A stretch of 64,000 bases of DNA from an uncultured Gemmatimonadales bacterium. Lineage in GTDB: Bacteria; Gemmatimonadota; Gemmatimonadetes; Gemmatimonadales; Gemmatimonadaceae. The notes under the pieces are model-generated. The model did no database searches. It was not told where the DNA came from and was given only the letters and a program-made list of their open reading frames with translations. Below are positions 6,819 to 32,681 of this stretch, one piece after another. The DNA lies in NCBI GenBank assembly GCA_963793305.1, contig CAWBZV010000003.1, forward strand, positions 608,001 to 672,000, in the 5' to 3' direction. The position numbers and the translations under genes were made by a program. Positions within the stretch are counted from its first letter, which is position 1; each line of letters starts with the position of its first letter.

Positions 6819-8755
6819 GCTCATCTCTCGTCAGCGTCATTGATATAGAATCACAACCGGATCCAAGCGCACTGGAGGCGGGGATTGCCCGCGCGTCCAA
6901 GGCGCTGATCGCGCAGCAGGATAGTGAGGGGTATTGGCGGTTCGATCTCGAGGCCGATTGCACGATCACGGCCGAGTACATCCTGATGATGCACTTTATG
7001 GACGAGATCGACTCGCCACTGCAAACGCGGCTCGCCAAGCACCTGCGAGCGAAGCAGGAAGCGCACGGTGGCTGGGGCTTGTTCCACGGCGGCGCGTTCG
7101 ACCTCTCATGCTCGGTCAAGTGTTACTACGCGCTCAAGATGGCCGGCGAGAGCCCCGAAGCGCCGTACATGTTGCGCGCGAAGCGGGCCATCTTGGCACA
7201 TGGTGGCGCCGCCAAAGCCAACGTGTTCACGCGCATCACCCTGGCGCTGTTCGAGCAGATCCCCTGGCGCGGGTGTCCGTTCCTCCCCGTCGAGATCGTG
7301 CTCCTGCCGCGGTGGTTCCCGTTTCATCTCACGAAAGTCTCGTACTGGTCGCGCACCGTCATGGTGCCGCTGGCCATTCTGTGCAGCTTGAAGCTCCGCG
7401 CCCGCAACCCGCGCCGCGTCGACATCCGTGAGCTGTTCGTCACGCCGCCGGAAAAAGAGAAAGAATATTTCCCGGCGCGATCGACACTGAGTCGCGCGTT
7501 CGCGGCACTAGACGCCATCGGTCGGAAAAGCGAGGCGCGGATTCCCAACGCTGCTCGTCGTCGCGCGTTGCTCCGCGCCACGCGCTGGTTCACCGCCCGC
7601 CTCAACGGCACCAATGGACTCGGCGGCATCTTCCCCGCGATGGTCAACGCGTACGAAGCACTCGCCGCCTTGGGATACGGCTACGATCACCCATATCGCG
7701 TGCAGGCGAGAGAGGCGCTCAAGAAATTACTCGTGGTCGGCGAAGAGACCGCCTACTGCCAGCCGTGCGTCTCACCAGTGTGGGATACCGCACTGGCCAC
7801 GCTCGCTCTCCAGGAAGTCGGTGATGAGGCGGCGGAAGTCGCGGCCGACCGGGCGCTCGACTGGTGCGTCTCCAAGCAGCTCAAAGAGGCTCAGCCTGGC
7901 GATTGGCGGGACGTACGACCGGGCGTCCGAGGCGGCGGCTGGGCGTTCCAGTTCGCGAATCCCCACTATCCCGATCTCGACGACACGTCAGCGGTCGCCT
8001 GGGCCATGTCGCAGTCCGGCTCCCGCGCGCGCTATAAGGAGTCCATGGCCTCGGCGGCCGAATGGATCGTCGGGATGCAAAGTCGAAACGGTGGGTTCGG
8101 TGCGTTCGATGCCGACAACACCGCGCGGTATCTCAATCAGATTCCGTTCGCGGATCACGGCGCGCTGCTCGATCCGCCCACGAGCGACGTCAGCGCGCGC
8201 TGTGCGCTGGCGCTCGCACGCTACGGCCGGCCTGAGCATCGGTTCGCGTTGACGCGCTGTCTCGCGTTCTTGCGGGACGAACAGGAGCCCGCGGGCTCTT
8301 GGTTCGGGCGCTGGGGAACCAACTACGTCTACGGCACGTGGTCGGTGCTGACGGCGCTGGAACAGGCCGGCGGGCCCGCTGATCGCGCGGTGATCGCGCG
8401 TGGCGCGGCATGGCTCGAGAATCGGCAGAATGCCGACGGTGGCTGGGGCGAGTCGAACGAGAGCTACTGGGACCAGGGCTGCGTTTCCCGGCGCGATCCC
8501 AGCACCGCATGTCAGACTGCCTGGGGTGTCCTTGGGCTTCTTGCTGCCGGGGAGGTCGATTCGGCCGCGGTGCGGCGCGGGGTCGCGTATCTCCTCTCGC
8601 GGCAGGACGCGGACGGGCAGTGGGACGATCCGTGGTTCAACGCGCCCGGGTTCCCGCGAGTGTTCTTCCTCAAGTACCACGGGTACGCCAAGTACTTCCC
8701 GTTGTGGGCGCTGGCGCGATACCGCACGCTGACGCGCTCAGGCGCGGCGGCGTGA
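6815..8755 (+). CDS. shc: Squalene-hopene cyclase
   Basis: YPDLDDT catalytic DxDD motif; QW repeats (QNADGGWGES); GRWGTNYVYG; GFPRVFFLKYHGY. Confidence 0.97.
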   Translation: MSSSLVSVIDIESQPDPSALEAGIARASKALIAQQDSEGYWRFDLEADCTITAEYILMMHFMDEIDSPLQTRLAKHLRAKQEAHGGWGLFHGGAFDLSCSVKCYYALKMAGESPEAPYMLRAKRAILAHGGAAKANVFTRITLALFEQIPWRGCPFLPVEIVLLPRWFPFHLTKVSYWSRTVMVPLAILCSLKLRARNPRRVDIRELFVTPPEKEKEYFPARSTLSRAFAALDAIGRKSEARIPNAARRRALLRATRWFTARLNGTNGLGGIFPAMVNAYEALAALGYGYDHPYRVQAREALKKLLVVGEETAYCQPCVSPVWDTALATLALQEVGDEAAEVAADRALDWCVSKQLKEAQPGDWRDVRPGVRGGGWAFQFANPHYPDLDDTSAVAWAMSQSGSRARYKESMASAAEWIVGMQSRNGGFGAFDADNTARYLNQIPFADHGALLDPPTSDVSARCALALARYGRPEHRFALTRCLAFLRDEQEPAGSWFGRWGTNYVYGTWSVLTALEQAGGPADRAVIARGAAWLENRQNADGGWGESNESYWDQGCVSRRDPSTACQTAWGVLGLLAAGEVDSAAVRRGVAYLLSRQDADGQWDDPWFNAPGFPRVFFLKYHGYAKYFPLWALARYRTLTRSGAAA

Positions 8756-27796: not shown

Positions 27797-28153
27797 ATGA
27801 AAACTCCACTGTACGGCCTCATCCTCGGCGGCGCGCTCGGCATCTTCGACGGCCTCTCCGCCCTCGTCTCAGCTCCCGAAGTCGCCCCCCAAATCGTTGG
27901 TATCGTCGTCGGCTCGACCATCAAGGGACTCATCACGGGCGTGCTGATCGGCGTCTTCGCCCGCAAGGTCCACTCATTTCCACTCGGTCTGGCATTCGGC
28001 CTCGCCGTCGGGATCTTGTTCGCGTACGGCGTCTGTGTGATGAACGTATCGACTGGCCAGAAACCTTATTACTGGCAGATCATGCTGCCCGGCGCGATCC
28101 TCGGGCTCATCGTTGGATACGCTACACAGCGTCATGAAACGATGACGGGCTAG
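27797..28153 (+). CDS. Hypothetical small 4-TM membrane protein
   Basis: 118 aa, glycine-rich hydrophobic helices, typical codon usage. Confidence 0.75.
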   Translation: MKTPLYGLILGGALGIFDGLSALVSAPEVAPQIVGIVVGSTIKGLITGVLIGVFARKVHSFPLGLAFGLAVGILFAYGVCVMNVSTGQKPYYWQIMLPGAILGLIVGYATQRHETMTG

Positions 28154-28185
28154 CGGCTCGAGTCTATCAGATTCGGGTCGCTAGC
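28149..28185 (+). terminator. Stem-loop at 3' end of the 4-TM gene
   Basis: GCTAGCGGCTCGAGTCT-ATC-AGATTCGGGTCGCTAGC pairs throughout allowing G-U. Confidence 0.45.
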
Positions 28186-28247
28186 TAGTGGCGAACGATT
28201 TGTCGGGCGTGTGTCGCAGCATCCAATTCTCATCCAGAGCGTAGAGT

Positions 28248-28333
28248 GCCCGGGTGGTGGAATTGGTAGACACACCGACCTCGCAAATCGGTGACCCGAA
28301 AGGGTCGTGCGGGTTCGAGTCCCGCTCCGGGCA
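28248..28333 (+). tRNA. Type-II tRNA with Leu-like body and CGC (Ala) anticodon; CCA not encoded
   Basis: Acceptor GCCCGGG/TCCGGGC + A73; D-arm GTGGAATTGGTAGACAC; anticodon arm CCGAC-CTCGCAA-ATCGG; variable arm GACCC-GAAA-GGGTC; T-arm GCGGG-TTCGAGT-CCCGC. Confidence 0.88.
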
Positions 28334-28401
28334 CGCTAGCTAGCGCCATTGCCTGTACGAGCGTGATTGCATAAATTGTGGTTACTTGCGAGGTCGGTGT
28401 G

Positions 28402-28431
28402 GGGCTCCGGGGAGAAATCCTCGGGGCTTTT
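28402..28431 (+). terminator. Probable intrinsic terminator downstream of the tRNA
   Basis: GCTCCGGGGA-GAAA-TCCTCGGGGC stem with GNRA loop followed by TTTT. Confidence 0.6.
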
Positions 28432-28452
28432 CACATCGGGGGAGTTCACCTG

Positions 28453-28481
28453 TTGACTTTCGGGATATCTTCGGGTACAAT
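28453..28481 (+). promoter_or_regulatory. Sigma70-type promoter TTGACT-N17-TACAAT, probably leaderless
   Basis: -35 at 28453-28458, -10 at 28476-28481, GTG start 7 nt downstream at 28488. Confidence 0.75.
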
Positions 28482-28487
28482 GTTCGG

Positions 28488-29747
28488 GTGGAGAAGGATC
28501 TTCCGCTCGAGCAAAAACTCGCGATTCTGACAGATCTGGCGACCGACGATCGCGAAGGACCGCCGCCGCCGCGGCTGCGCAATACGAAGTCAGTCGGCGC
28601 GCTCCGACCGCTGAATATCAGACAGATACGAGTCGGACGGTGGAAGACGTCGCTGCTGCGCATTCTCATGACGAATGCATGCAGCTACAACTGCCACTAC
28701 TGCCCAATGCGCCGCGACCGGAACATGCCGCGGACGCTGCTCAAGCCCGAGGAGCTCGTCAAGATCTTCCTCGCGGCGAGGGCCAAGGGATGGTGCGAGG
28801 GGCTGTTCATTACCACTGGCATCCCTGGTCGGCCGCAAAAGGTGATCGATGACCTGATCACCGTGCTCGAACTGCTGCGAGTCAAGCACAAGTTCACGGG
28901 CTACGTGCACGTGAAGATGCCACCGGGCGGACAACCGGCGCAGATCGAGCGACTAACGGCGCTGGCGAGTCGCGTGTCGATCAACCTCGAGACCCCGTGC
29001 GGTCAGACGTTGGAGCAGATCGCGCCGGAGAAGAGTCTCAGCGAGACGCTGGTCAGCCTGGAGCGCTCGCGCACGCTCGTCAATCTCGCGCGCGAAGCCG
29101 AGCGGGATGGGAAGCAGCGCGACCTGTTGGCGCCCGGTGGTGTCGCCGGGATGACGATGCAGTTCGTCGTGGGTGCTACGCCCGATGATGATCGGTCGAT
29201 CGTCGGCCGCGTGACGGCACTCTATGCCGGAGGCGGCATCCATCACGCACATTTCTCCGCCTTCCGCCCGATCCGCGACACGCCCATGGAGAACACCCGA
29301 GCGACTCCCGCTCTGAGAGAGCAGCGGCTGTATCAGGTGGATTATCTCCTGCGCCAGTACGGATTCGGACCGGGCGAGATCGTCTATGACGACACCGGTC
29401 ATCTCCCGCTCGTCACCGACCCCAAGTACGCTTGGGCCCTCGCGCATCCGGCGTCGTTTCCGGTCGAGGTGACGACGGCCGACTATGAGACGCTCATGCG
29501 GGTACCCGGCATCGGCCCGCTCTCGGCCCGCCGACTCGTGGCCGAGCGCCACGCAACCGCGATCCGCGGCCTCGCGGATCTCAGAAAGCTCGGCGTGATC
29601 ACCAAGCGCGCGGCCGGATTTGTCACGCTCCGCGGCCGCCGGCTCAATCCGGTCCGGTGGGAACAACAGCTCGGGATCTGGCGACCCGAAGACGAGATTG
29701 GTAGCTATCATCGGGTATACGAAGTCAGTCCCGGAACATTTCGATAG
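28488..29747 (+). CDS. Putative DNA modification/repair radical SAM protein with C-terminal helix-hairpin-helix
   Basis: LLRILMTNACSYNCHYC, SRVSINLE, FSAFRPI, LREQRLYQVDYLLRQYGF, DPKYAWAL and LMRVPGIGP motifs, as recalled for the UDG-linked rSAM family (TIGR03916). Confidence 0.85.
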   Translation: MEKDLPLEQKLAILTDLATDDREGPPPPRLRNTKSVGALRPLNIRQIRVGRWKTSLLRILMTNACSYNCHYCPMRRDRNMPRTLLKPEELVKIFLAARAKGWCEGLFITTGIPGRPQKVIDDLITVLELLRVKHKFTGYVHVKMPPGGQPAQIERLTALASRVSINLETPCGQTLEQIAPEKSLSETLVSLERSRTLVNLAREAERDGKQRDLLAPGGVAGMTMQFVVGATPDDDRSIVGRVTALYAGGGIHHAHFSAFRPIRDTPMENTRATPALREQRLYQVDYLLRQYGFGPGEIVYDDTGHLPLVTDPKYAWALAHPASFPVEVTTADYETLMRVPGIGPLSARRLVAERHATAIRGLADLRKLGVITKRAAGFVTLRGRRLNPVRWEQQLGIWRPEDEIGSYHRVYEVSPGTFR

Positions 29748-30074: not shown

Positions 30075-32681
30075 GTGAGCAGCGAGCTCTTAGATCAACT
30101 ACAAGCGGGCCTGGGGTCGGGATATACGGTCGAACGCGAGATCGGTCGCGGCGGCATGGCGACCGTATTTCTGGCCCACGATCACAAGCACGATCGCTCC
30201 GTCGCGCTCAAAGTCCTGCACGAGCCACTGGCCGCGAGCCTCGGGCCCGCGCGCTTTCGGCGCGAGATCACGCTCGCCGCGCGCCTGCAGCACCCACACA
30301 TCCTCGCCGTGCACGACTCCGGCGAGGCCCAAGGGCTCTTGTGGTTCACGATGCCGTATGTCGACGGCGAGACGCTCCGCTCGCTGCTGAATCGTCAAAA
30401 GCAGCTGCCGGTCGAGAACGCCGTGCAGATCGCTCGCGAGGTCGCCGATGCGCTCGAGTACGCGCACCAGCACGGCGTGATCCATCGCGACATCAAGCCC
30501 GAAAATATTCTCCTGTCGAGCGGCCATGCGCTGGTCGCGGATTTCGGCATCGCGCGAGCCGTGCACCCCGGTGACGGGGATCATGCGCTGACCGAAATCG
30601 GCATGGCGATCGGGACTCCGCGGTACATGAGTCCCGAGCAGGCGCACGCCGAGCGGTCGATCGATGGACGCACGGACGTGTACAGCCTGGCGGCGGTGCT
30701 CTACGAGATGCTCGCCGGTGTGCCGCCGACTGGCCTCTGGACCGGCACGGTCTCGGTGCGCAAAGATCGCCCGTCAGTCCCTGAAGCGATCGACCTCGCG
30801 CTCCAGAAAGCGCTGCAACCGATGCCCGCCGATCGGTTCGCCTCGGCCGGTCAGTTCGCGGAAGCGCTGTCGACGGGGATGAAGCCGCCGCGCGGTCGAC
30901 CCTATGTCGCGTGGGTCGCGGTGGGTATCGCCGTCGCCGCGCTGACATTGCTGGTCGCCCGGTGGCCGGCCCGCGGCGGCACGTCGAAAGTCCTCGCCGT
31001 GCTCCCCTTCGAAAACCTCGGCGCCAGCACGCAGGAGTATTTCGCCGAGGGGCTGACCGATGAGCTCCGCGGGAAGCTCTCGTCGATCGCCGGGCTCAGC
31101 GTGATCGCCACCGGCAGCTCGGAGCAGTATCGCCACACGGAGAAGACCCTGCAGCAGATCGCGCACGAGCTCGGGGTCCGCTATCTGCTGGTTGGCACCG
31201 TGAGCTGGGACGGCAAATCCCGCGTGCGCGTGAGCCCCGAGCTGGTCGAGGTGACGTCGGCGCCGGCGCCGACGACGACGTGGAAGCAAGCGTTCGAGGC
31301 CAATCCCTCCGACGTGTTCTCCGTACAGGCCGACATCGCCGGCCAGGTTGCCTCGGAGCTCGGGCTCGCGCTCGGCACCAGCGCCAAGCGCAAAATGACT
31401 GCCCGCCTGACCGAGAACATTGCGGCGCACGATGCCTACCTCCAGGGTCTCGCGTTGCTGCCGCGCACGATCACGGCCGGGACGGCGACGCCGTCGGCCG
31501 AAGTGGCGCGACAGGCGGCCGCGGCGTTCCGACAGGCCGTGGCGCTCGACTCATCGTTCGCCGCTGCCTGGGCGCGGCTGTCGCTCGTCGACTCGCGCCT
31601 GTACCTGGCGGACGCATCGCCATCCGTGCTCGCCGAATCGCGGACGGCGGCCGAGCGGTCCTTGAGGCTCAACCCGGCGCTCCCCGAGGGCCACCAAGCG
31701 CTCGGCGCCTACTTCGCGAACGGCCCGAGCGATTTCGCGCGGGCGCTGTCGGAGGATTCGATCGGGCTCGCCGCCGCGCCCGAGAACGTCGAGCTGCTCA
31801 CGGCGGCCGGCGTGAATGAGATCAACATGGGGAGGCTCGATGCGGCGATCGAGCGGCTGCGCCATGCGCTGGCGCTCGATCCGCGATCCGTGTTGACGGC
31901 TACGCGACTCGCCGATGCGCTCAATCGCAAAGGCGACTTCGCCGGGGCGCGCGAGGCCGCCGAGCATGGGCTCGGTGTCGATCCGACGAGTCTCGCGCTC
32001 CTGGAGTCGAAAGCCTATGCGCAGCGTGGGCAAGGTGACCTGGGCGGCGCGCGCGCCACGCTCGAGCGAGCGCTCGATGTCGCGCCCACCAACTTCGAGA
32101 TCATCGAGCTCGACGCCATGACGTATCTCATGGGCGGCGATCTCCAGGGCGCGCGGCATGTCCTCCACCAGGCGAGCGCACGGGTCGACTCGGCCGCGCT
32201 CTTCGCGTATGTGGCGACGACGTACGACCTGTACTGGGTGCTCGACGACGCCGAGCAGCGGGCGCTTCTGGCGATGGGGCCCGGGGAGAGCTCGCGGCGC
32301 GATTGGGCGCTGGCGCTCGCGCACACCTACTGGTTGCGTGGGCGCTCGGATGCGGCGAAGGCGTACGCCGACTCGGCGCTGGCTGCGCCGCAAGGGACCG
32401 GCGCTCAGGATATTGCGCTGCTCGGCGTGGCCGAGGCGTATGACGGGCGCCGCGAGGATGCGGTACGCCATGGACATCAGGCCGTGACTGCCGATCCCAT
32501 CGCGACGGATCGGCAGAATGGGCCCTATACCGAGATGTTACTGGCGCGCATCTGGATGCTGGCCGGCCAGCCCGACAGTGCGGCGGCGGCGCTCGCGGTT
32601 GCCGAGAAGGTCCCTGGGTTCTATCTCACGCCGGCGTGGTTGACAATAGATCCGACGTGGGCGCACGTTTTCAGAAAATAG
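30075..32681 (+). CDS. Ser/Thr kinase - TM - TolB-like - TPR protein
   Basis: Kinase motifs GRGGMATV, HRDIKPEN, DFG and GTPRYMSPEQ; LAVLPFENLG TolB-like motif; TPR-like C-terminus. Confidence 0.92.
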   Translation: MSSELLDQLQAGLGSGYTVEREIGRGGMATVFLAHDHKHDRSVALKVLHEPLAASLGPARFRREITLAARLQHPHILAVHDSGEAQGLLWFTMPYVDGETLRSLLNRQKQLPVENAVQIAREVADALEYAHQHGVIHRDIKPENILLSSGHALVADFGIARAVHPGDGDHALTEIGMAIGTPRYMSPEQAHAERSIDGRTDVYSLAAVLYEMLAGVPPTGLWTGTVSVRKDRPSVPEAIDLALQKALQPMPADRFASAGQFAEALSTGMKPPRGRPYVAWVAVGIAVAALTLLVARWPARGGTSKVLAVLPFENLGASTQEYFAEGLTDELRGKLSSIAGLSVIATGSSEQYRHTEKTLQQIAHELGVRYLLVGTVSWDGKSRVRVSPELVEVTSAPAPTTTWKQAFEANPSDVFSVQADIAGQVASELGLALGTSAKRKMTARLTENIAAHDAYLQGLALLPRTITAGTATPSAEVARQAAAAFRQAVALDSSFAAAWARLSLVDSRLYLADASPSVLAESRTAAERSLRLNPALPEGHQALGAYFANGPSDFARALSEDSIGLAAAPENVELLTAAGVNEINMGRLDAAIERLRHALALDPRSVLTATRLADALNRKGDFAGAREAAEHGLGVDPTSLALLESKAYAQRGQGDLGGARATLERALDVAPTNFEIIELDAMTYLMGGDLQGARHVLHQASARVDSAALFAYVATTYDLYWVLDDAEQRALLAMGPGESSRRDWALALAHTYWLRGRSDAAKAYADSALAAPQGTGAQDIALLGVAEAYDGRREDAVRHGHQAVTADPIATDRQNGPYTEMLLARIWMLAGQPDSAAAALAVAEKVPGFYLTPAWLTIDPTWAHVFRK

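Follow-up and report, generated by a model that had tools for sequence, protein, structure and literature searches.

We describe a pair of adjacent RNA genes in a stretch of 64,000 nucleotides (nt) from an uncultured Gemmatimonadales bacterium (the window, G000:C3:608001-672000, i.e. that part of contig C3 of genome G000; the features of the gene pair all lie on its forward strand). The first gene, at window positions 28248..28333, encodes a type-II tRNA in which a leucine-type body carries the alanine anticodon CGC. The second follows on that strand after about 50 nt and is a unit for a small RNA (sRNA) that is complementary to this tRNA and that was overlooked in the initial annotation of the window. 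Such an arrangement of two adjacent genes with cognate complementarity is that of modules controlled by an RNA antitoxin. On the strength of the sequences we propose that the pair forms an RNA-only module in which the antisense sRNA would neutralise a leucine-charged, mistranslating tRNA, a reading to which we give about an even chance of being correct.

The tRNA gene, called copy B here since it is one of three in this genome, is named tRNA-Ala(cgc) by ARAGORN (28248-28334), and the Rfam family RF00005 matches it at 28248-28333 with 49.7 bits (E 1.2e-07), the sole match at gathering level within the 64 kb window. Direct reading gives an acceptor stem of seven base pairs (bp) with A73 at 28333, a D-stem of 3 bp (GUG/CAC) with the D-loop GAAUUGGUAGA, an anticodon stem CCGAC/AUCGG with a mismatched C31.A39, the anticodon loop CUCGCAA at 28280-28286 with CGC at 28282-28284, a variable arm folded as the stem-loop ACCC-GAAA-GGGU, and a normal T-arm. 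The T-loop contains U54, U55, C56 and A58, with which the D/T-loop tertiary pairs G18:U55, G19-C56 and U54:A58 are possible. This reading bears out the structural part of the initial annotation throughout, namely a cloverleaf with a long variable arm, A73, A15:U48, a leucine-type D-loop, a C3-G70 pair, the CGC loop and the C31-A39 mismatch. The wobble pair G3:U70 is the defining feature of tRNA-Ala, and its place is taken by C-G in copy B; across 36 aligned family members the 3:70 pair is C-G in 22, G-C in 11 and U-A in 3, and G:U in 0/36. The seryl-, leucyl- and alanyl-tRNA synthetases ignore the anticodon.

With the five leucine tRNAs of its own genome copy B shares 70-78% identity, compared with 60-72% for the serine tRNAs, 63% for the tyrosine tRNA and 62-63% for tRNA-Ala(CGC), and the leucine assignment made in the initial annotation is thereby upheld. 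The family has variable arms of 12-14 nt and so departs from the type-I body of the four genuine tRNA-Ala genes of this genome, which are 73-76 nt long; at the same time the anticodon CGC of copy B is not of the leucine form NAG or YAA. A73, A15, U48, G18, G19 and A20a each occur in 36/36 aligned members. All of these (A73, A15-U48, G18G19, A20a) are among the leucine identity elements of Escherichia coli given in the available excerpt of PMC9976931, according to which the leucyl-tRNA synthetase (LeuRS) needs neither the anticodon nor the variable arm, while positions 54 and 55 matter for leucylation; that LeuRS does not read the anticodon is also stated in an excerpt of PMC11028032. Judged by its sequence, the body of copy B is of the leucine type and has the full E. 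coli-type identity set.

Neither a sequencing error nor a gene in decay would look like this one. ARAGORN makes 62 calls in the whole genome, among which the ordinary sets are complete both for leucine (gag, tag, cag, taa, caa) and for alanine (cgc twice, tgc, ggc). In addition, contig C3 carries three 87-nt 'Ala(cgc)' genes, copy B of the window and its paralogues A and C, which all keep the loop YUCGCAA and differ in their anticodon stems by compensating changes. Homologues retaining CGC, on which the initial annotation had made its claim depend, are found not only in copies A and C but also in the orthologues of the congeneric genomes G001, G003 and G004 and in contigs of relatives from a soil RNA library. 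Because CGC is kept in two paralogues of the same genome, three orthologues and the soil contigs, a sequencing error can be ruled out. In the 36-member alignment 98.1% of the cloverleaf cells are paired, 18 of the 24 pairs vary on both sides (231 double-sided cells), and compensatory covariation is seen in all five helices; the covariation score of 0.767 compares with 0.224 for shuffled alignments (0/500 reach 0.767) and 0.08-0.13 for slid controls. A tRNA pseudogene was considered and rejected, since the uncompensated decay of stems or anticodon that it should display was not found against 98.1% pairing and a CGC kept in orthologues.

The congeners also reveal which parts of the tRNA are free to change. 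The radical-SAM gene that lies 3' of copy B is present in five of five congeners, and the module stands upstream of it in G001, G003 and G004 and is missing in G002 and G005, i.e. it is present in 4/6 genomes of the genus including that of the window. Congeners whose radical-SAM proteins are 98% identical have unchanged acceptor, D and T arms and an unchanged loop CUCGC; their anticodon stem, position 26 and variable arm vary, and the sRNA varies in step. The soil-library contigs likewise exchange G-C for A-U, A-U for G-U and the C.A mismatch for U-A around a constant loop. Judging from this pattern of substitutions, the cloverleaf covariation and the invariant identity elements, the tRNA body is under tRNA-type selection.

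The sRNA unit of copy B begins with a putative sigma-70-like promoter, TTGCCT and TAAATT separated by 17 nt (28349..28377), which was located by our promoter script and has 8/12 matches in a strict scan. It is followed by the antisense segment CTTGCGAGGTCGGTGTG (28385..28401), identified by its complementarity to the tRNA and co-varying with the stem in G001, G003 and G004, and by a terminator hairpin in which GGGGCUCCGGGG and CCUCGGGGCU form 12 bp in the centroid fold, followed by four U (28402..28431). The sRNA would thus be about 48 nt long. The initial annotation had noted that a terminator follows the tRNA; the hairpin and its T-run are real, although they end a separate sRNA unit and not the tRNA alone. 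An exact complement of 16 nt (28386-28401) spans tRNA positions 23-38 and covers the 3' strand of the D-stem, position 26, the 5' strand of the anticodon stem and the entire anticodon loop. As the reverse complement of a hairpin, the 5' segment of the sRNA can itself fold into a hairpin that presents the anti-loop, as seen in the folds.

Complementarity of this kind recurs across the family. A first pattern scan of species-representative genomes, followed by ARAGORN, yielded at least 17 long-arm tRNA(CGC) genes (among the 120 pattern-scan matches listed, 12 are real genes of this type), and an exact self-complement of at least 10 nt lies at +40 to +72 downstream in 13/17 of these loci, among the matches listed. 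By comparison, at the 59 other ARAGORN calls of the genome the self-complements within a distance of 200 nt do not exceed 10 nt, against 16 and 18 nt for copies B and C. When 41 loci were compared all against all, the cognate complement reached at least 10 nt in 30/41 loci versus 29/1640 non-cognate pairs, and the cognate partner ranked first in 30/41. Each of the tRNA positions 24-40 is paired with the sRNA in 79-100% of the 33 loci that were anchored; if partners are swapped within one anticodon type, the stem positions 26-31 and 39-40 pair in just 37-55%. The net free energy change (ddG) of cofolding amounts to -3.9 to -30 kcal/mol for cognate pairs versus means of -0.3 to -6.1 for non-cognate ones. 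The tests of complement length and of position-wise pairing, like the duplex test of the census below, are confined to the anticodon arm, since the sRNA of G001 also covers the conserved D-loop and so pairs with every tRNA. A matching complement is carried by members with the anticodons GCG, GCC, GGC, CUC, GUC, GGU, GAC and CAC. In 33/36 loci our promoter script places a promoter with the boxes TTGnnn and TAnnnT, spaced by 17 nt, so that its end lies 0-7 nt ahead of the complement, and the strict scan confirms sRNA promoters in L024, L169 and L001 (twice in the latter) versus a shuffle expectation of 0.0-0.1.

Not all sRNAs are directed to the anticodon. In G001 a second sRNA unit is complementary to the D-arm together with the acceptor stem's 5' strand, the sRNA of copy A is antisense to the variable arm and the D-arm, and a second unit of copy C fits stems of the tRNA and not its anticodon. 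Since these sRNAs hit other arms, the target is the whole tRNA molecule rather than a codon-like triplet alone. None of the sRNAs is matched by an Rfam family. Locus L228 (one contig of G436, oriented ~0-1030) shows how modules are multiplied and their anticodon is then exchanged: a tandem duplication of 538 nt comprises the 3' end of a gene, an sRNA unit and a tRNA, and the duplicates differ by CGC versus CAC in the tRNA and by GTGCGAG versus GTGTGAG in the sRNA. On this contig the sRNA unit stands about 200 nt upstream of the tRNA, unlike at other loci. At another locus (L177:921-1004) a skipping-rope RNA (RF02924, 45.1 bits, above gathering) was detected directly after a CUC-type sRNA unit.

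The extent of the family was assessed in later scans of 401 genomes of the phylum and, with the anticodon loop left free, of 401 genomes of the order; 60 places were examined. Most matches of the phylum scan were due to chance, reversed-pattern controls giving similar rates, and it included three unpublished genomes (G204, G012, G125) on which no claim is based. Six candidates (L135, L164, L179, L222, L224 and L227) turned out not to be tRNAs. The census comprises 79 unique Leu-bodied sequences, of which 69 were placed in 'class 1', and 65/69 class-1 tRNAs have a duplex with their sRNA of at most -27 kcal/mol, compared with 2.9% of the non-cognate controls; copy A and L157 fall short of this threshold and have an antisense segment by other measures. 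Validated members occur in 35/401 sampled genomes of the order and are confined to three families of that one order, with one to at least five copies per genome; the other nine families in the phylum scan yielded no validated member. Outside the genus, the carriers in the first scan are records labelled Gemmatimonadales, Gemmatimonadaceae and Gemmatimonadota, plus one labelled Planctomycetales. These prevalence figures are lower bounds, because the early patterns missed the B-locus orthologues of G001, G003 and G004, which have G37 or lack TG at positions 44-45. Leu-like long-arm tRNA(CGC) genes without an antisense unit were seen at L038, L088 and L099, which bear the labels Chloroflexi, Paracoccaceae (95 nt, with encoded CCA) and Gammaproteobacteria.

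The anticodons found on the leucine body in class 1 are CGC, GGC and AGC (Ala), GCG (Arg), GCC (Gly), CUC (Glu), GUC (Asp), GGU (Thr), and GAC and CAC (Val), and the types other than CGC each have an antisense segment in which their own anticodon finds its complement. In 1,769 long open reading frames of the window's genome the codons rank in the order GCG (1), GGC (2), GCC (3), CUC (4), CGC (5), GUC (6), GAC (7) and GAG (8), and GCG, at 58.9 per 1000, is indeed as common as the initial annotation had supposed. The family anticodons read GCG, GGC, GCC, CGC, GUC, GAC and GAG, that is, all seven non-leucine codons of the top eight; the remaining types read GUG (rank 13) and ACC (rank 19), and AGC reads other alanine codons. 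No family member has U34 or A36, though neither position was constrained in the scans, a result that we take to fit decoders without need for an isoacceptor-specific modification. Nor did the 19 rows of one scan of the order contain an isoleucine or methionine anticodon on a leucine body.

We assume that the module works in the following way. The first gene would provide a Leu-bodied tRNA with the alanine anticodon CGC, and the second an sRNA made from its own promoter and ended by its own terminator. Because bacterial LeuRS ignores the anticodon, the tRNA is expected to carry leucine, and a leucine-charged tRNA with C34-G35-C36 would read GCG, the commonest codon of the genome, as leucine. 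The sRNA (~50-80 nt) would presumably contact the exposed anticodon loop and then invade the anticodon and D stems; with the anticodon masked and the core unfolded, the tRNA would therefore neither be used nor, probably, charged. The nascent or precursor tRNA may be a further target, which the sRNA would mark for decay. A shortfall of sRNA would free the tRNA and lead to proteome-wide substitution of leucine for alanine. We infer expression, leucylation, ribosomal use and toxicity of the tRNA as well as the physiological role of the pair. The initial annotation had offered conditional mistranslation and a dedicated synthetase as explanations: for the former the cognate antisense sRNA now provides a candidate switch, whereas no synthetase turned up when the genes next to five loci were searched with Pfam, and a single full-length LeuRS is encoded elsewhere in the genome.

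The physiological role can be stated only tentatively. An addiction- or abortive-infection-like pair of toxin and antitoxin is a possible one, with the chances somewhat against it; stress-regulated mistranslation appears rather unlikely. The resemblance to toxin-antitoxin systems arises because the module is independent of its neighbours, multi-copy and patchily distributed. It is conceivable, if more doubtful than not, that the family constitutes an unrecognised RNA-only class of toxin-antitoxin or abortive-infection systems, the toxin being a leucine-charged tRNA aimed at the most abundant non-leucine codons of the host, GCG, GGC, GCC, CGC, GUC, GAC or GAG. The antitoxin would then be a short-lived sRNA that unfolds one particular tRNA. 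Once its synthesis ceased, for instance by phage-induced shut-off of transcription or by loss of the locus, the stable tRNA would be set free and corrupt all protein made from then on. Through fast co-evolution of anticodon stem and sRNA, paralogous pairs would remain orthogonal or mimic antitoxins would be evaded.

Several observations weigh against the proposal of a guarded mistranslating tRNA. The strict promoter and terminator scan calls neither the sRNA promoter of copy B (8/12 matches) nor its terminator, the latter because its tail has only four T. The folding energies were obtained with ViennaRNA without tertiary structure or base modifications, and RNAcofold does not consider loop-loop kissing. 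Two contigs of the soil RNA library span the leader and the tRNA of close relatives, with possible carry-over of DNA, and leave the sRNA uncovered. In the RNA data X1 corresponds only to part of the radical-SAM gene and X2 to 28101-28347 and 28412-28593 of the window, so that 28348-28411 is not covered. These data stem from two runs (shares 0.07 and 0.06) and consist of assembled contigs, from which presence or absence of a transcript does not follow. U33 is near-universal in tRNAs, and C33 replaces it in 13/61 loop-unbiased rows (8/45 of class 1 and 5/16 of the valine type); furthermore, C55 is present in 4/36 members and C54 in 1/36, and these five lack the tertiary pairs described above. 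Some members may therefore decode weakly or be charged poorly, or selection may act on something other than decoding. The census rests on patterns with obligatory GGTAGACRC and RGTTCRA, to which the two early scans added Y32, U33 and R37 as fixed positions, and the codon ranks come from this genome alone. A replacement of valine by leucine is conservative and fits a choice of abundant codons rather than one of maximal damage. Finally, Leu-bodied tRNAs with proline or histidine anticodons have an antisense unit nearby in 0/9 cases.

The latter belong to a second Leu-bodied class with the anticodons UGG or CGG (L161, L178, L158, L190, L198, L204-L206), GUG (L191, L192) and GCG (L203), in which no antisense unit was present within ~250 nt. 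These tRNAs occur in several genera, resemble single position-35 variants of ordinary leucine loops and often have G37. Either an unguarded mismatch is tolerated here or the genes are inactive.

The C33 variants (13/61 rows) and the C55 or C54 variants (5/36) suggest that some of the family are less constrained in decoding or charging, and they speak for a pair of regulatory or structural RNAs that takes no part in decoding. The tRNA-shaped RNA would then stay off the ribosome and might be uncharged, its fold would serve processing and stability, and the two RNAs would act as sponge and sRNA or as a sense/antisense switch for some other process. We regard this as decidedly unlikely, given that close relatives do not differ in the acceptor stem, A73, the D-loop or the T-arm and that the leucine set is complete in 36/36 members. 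The anticodons, too, are non-random: they match the seven most-used non-leucine codons and never contain U34 or A36. In addition, the 5' segments of the sRNAs vary between paralogues and no common third target is apparent.

The roles of the two RNAs might also be reversed. The conserved part of every sRNA is a 7-nt complement of a loop that is shared with a genuine abundant tRNA, so that the sRNA could be the effector that binds the anticodon loops of genuine, heavily used tRNAs such as Ala-CGC and Gly-GCC and starves translation, with the Leu-bodied tRNA as a stable decoy or antidote whose extended complementarity would soak up the sRNA. The bias to abundant codons fits equally well, and RNA toxins that sequester a tRNA are known, such as CreT (excerpt of PMC8501985). 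We nevertheless hold this polarity to be improbable. The sRNA of copy A and the second sRNA of G001 lack an anti-anticodon part or target sequences exclusive to the Leu-bodied partner; a decoy could do without a full tRNA that retains A73 and the invariant identity elements for leucine; and it is the sRNA that owns the stronger, near-consensus promoter, as is usual for the neutralising partner. The sRNAs of copies B and C, moreover, gain a net of only 0 to -3.2 kcal/mol with tRNA-Ala(CGC), compared with -12.5 and -25.4 with their cognates, values in which kissing loops could not be modelled.

A third alternative assigns the tRNA to a function outside the ribosome, as donor of leucine to a transferase (e.g. 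L/F-transferase-, Fem-, cyclodipeptide-synthase- or PEARL-like), with the sRNA keeping the tRNA off the ribosome. This explanation was among those offered in the initial annotation, and dedicated non-proteinogenic tRNAs do exist in other bacteria. It is very improbable all the same, since no transferase or biosynthetic gene is common to the loci and an anticodon that reads an abundant sense codon would draw a donor tRNA into translation instead of excluding it. The footprint of the sRNA also takes in the D-stem, the disruption of which should abolish leucylation to judge from the E. coli data in the excerpt of PMC9976931. That copy B is a decaying duplicate of a tRNA-Leu beside a chance inverted repeat, as its mismatch between anticodon and body and its single C31.A39 mismatch might suggest if this gene were viewed in isolation, deserves hardly any credence in view of the covariation in all five helices, the CGC kept in orthologues and paralogues, and complement statistics and controls that speak against chance.

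If the guarded mistranslating tRNA is compared with known systems, it shares a principle with each of them and fits none. A T-box is an mRNA leader that pairs three nucleotides with the anticodon and also binds the NCCA end in order to control the downstream gene. Here too an RNA element pairs with a tRNA anticodon; unlike in a T-box, the pairing extends over 16-20 nt including stems, the unit ends in a terminator, and the next genes at copies A and C are on the opposite strand. No T-box was matched in Rfam at E values up to 1 on 15 loci. CopA/CopT and RNAI/RNAII exemplify antisense control through kissing loops, for which a U-turn loop is the classic geometry of fast pairing. The sRNA can likewise present an anti-loop hairpin and its target loop carries a U-turn, but that target is the anticodon loop of a tRNA, not a replication primer or mRNA. 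Among toxin-antitoxin systems, hok/sok stands for type I, and RNA-RNA pairs such as CreTA have been called 'type VIII'. Like the modules hok/sok and CreTA, as far as these are covered in the excerpts of PMC8501985 and PMC1635323, the present one is compact and has an sRNA that is complementary to its partner and driven by a strong promoter; it is also cognate-specific, multi-copy, patchy and independent of neighbours. It differs from them in that the antisense target is a tRNA and not an mRNA and in that toxicity is presumed.

The closest tRNA precedent is different again. In Streptomyces and Kitasatospora, tRNA-ProX with its synthetase ProRSx combines a proline body with alanine, asparagine or threonine anticodons (excerpt of PMC10365949). 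That family resembles ours in its conserved mismatch of body and anticodon, its several anticodons and its patchy occurrence. However, tRNA-ProX is paired with a dedicated synthetase gene, whereas the partner here is an antisense sRNA and no protein, and the body is that of a leucine tRNA, whose normal synthetase already ignores the anticodon. Engineered anticodon variants of tRNA-Ser (PMC6125640) and tRNA-Leu (PMC11028032), as presented in the excerpts of these papers, rest on the same principle, a synthetase blind to the anticodon, so that the swap leads to a tRNA that mis-inserts and is often toxic; anticodon-swapped tRNA-Ser variants are often lethal in yeast according to the former excerpt. 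Unlike those variants, which are laboratory constructs or rare human variants, the present family is natural, conserved and equipped with a built-in antagonist.

To our knowledge, very few bacterial systems of deliberate, genetically encoded mistranslation have so far become known. In the literature that we searched, including the excerpt of PMC8450103, there was no precedent for mis-decoding as the activity of a toxin-antitoxin toxin, and neither bacterial tRNAs that combine a leucine body with a foreign anticodon nor an sRNA directed against a tRNA were described. If our proposal is right, cells can hold a proteome-wide mis-decoder in their genome under the control of an RNA. Codon reassignment on demand would then be a new mechanism of toxins for toxin-antitoxin and possibly phage-defence biology, and the natural orthogonal pairs of tRNA and anti-tRNA could be used in synthetic biology as switches that control mis-incorporation or silence a tRNA. 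Annotation is affected as well: by their anticodon and nothing else these genes are named tRNA-Ala, Arg, Gly, Glu, Asp, Thr or Val, and the partner sRNAs are unannotated.

Several further elements surround copy B. The trailer CGCTAGCTAGCG (28334..28345), kept in orthologues, is complementary to a palindromic box CGCTAGCTAG upstream of the tRNA (28179..28188); both were found by direct reading, and the box possibly forms a leader-trailer helix or an operator. Similar complements of upstream region and trailer are present at copy A (AACCAGCGT / ACGCTGGTT) and in a group labelled Gemmatimonadales (GUGCCAG / CUGGCAU). A further box, GTGTCGCAGCA with the core GTCGCAGC (28211..28221), lies about 30-37 nt before the 5' end of the tRNA and is invariant across four B-locus orthologues; its core, as (G/C)GTCGCAGC(A), is conserved about 35-45 nt upstream of CGC-type and GCG-type members in several genera, and about 17 nt before the GTCGCAGC box there is a box similar to CCAGCGGCA. 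The GTGTCGCAGCA box may be a promoter element of a non-sigma-70 or alternative-sigma type or a leader motif. In GCG-type modules the GTCGCAGC box is complementary to the anticodon loop of the tRNA itself.

The radical-SAM gene downstream of copy B (28453-29747) encodes a TIGR03916-like protein (294.7 bits, under the cut-off of 343.5) with the Pfam domains Radical_SAM and HHH_3. It has a promoter of its own outside the module, TTGACT and TACAAT separated by 17 nt (28453..28481, forward strand, 10/12 matches), which is conserved in the congeners, including G005 that lacks the module. An in-frame GTG at 28488 follows the end of this promoter by 6 nt, so that the mRNA probably lacks a leader. The initial annotation had placed the tRNA directly upstream of this gene; the adjacency holds only for copy B and its orthologues (4/6 genomes of the genus), while a functional link was considered and rejected in view of the gene's own promoter and the different neighbours of the other copies. 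These neighbours are MutS and TonB_C at copy A, Peptidase_S9 and PP2C at copy C, and HD_4 and ADH at a second locus of G003. The module is thus autonomous from its neighbouring genes.

Elsewhere in the window, ARAGORN calls a 90-nt 'tRNA-Arg(acg)' at 8291-8380, similar calls of 79-100 nt being made at other places of the genome; it is probably a false positive because no Rfam tRNA match reaches the gathering score there. Downstream of the radical-SAM gene, at 30075-32681, a Ser/Thr protein kinase with TPR repeats is encoded (Pkinase, E 7.4e-47).

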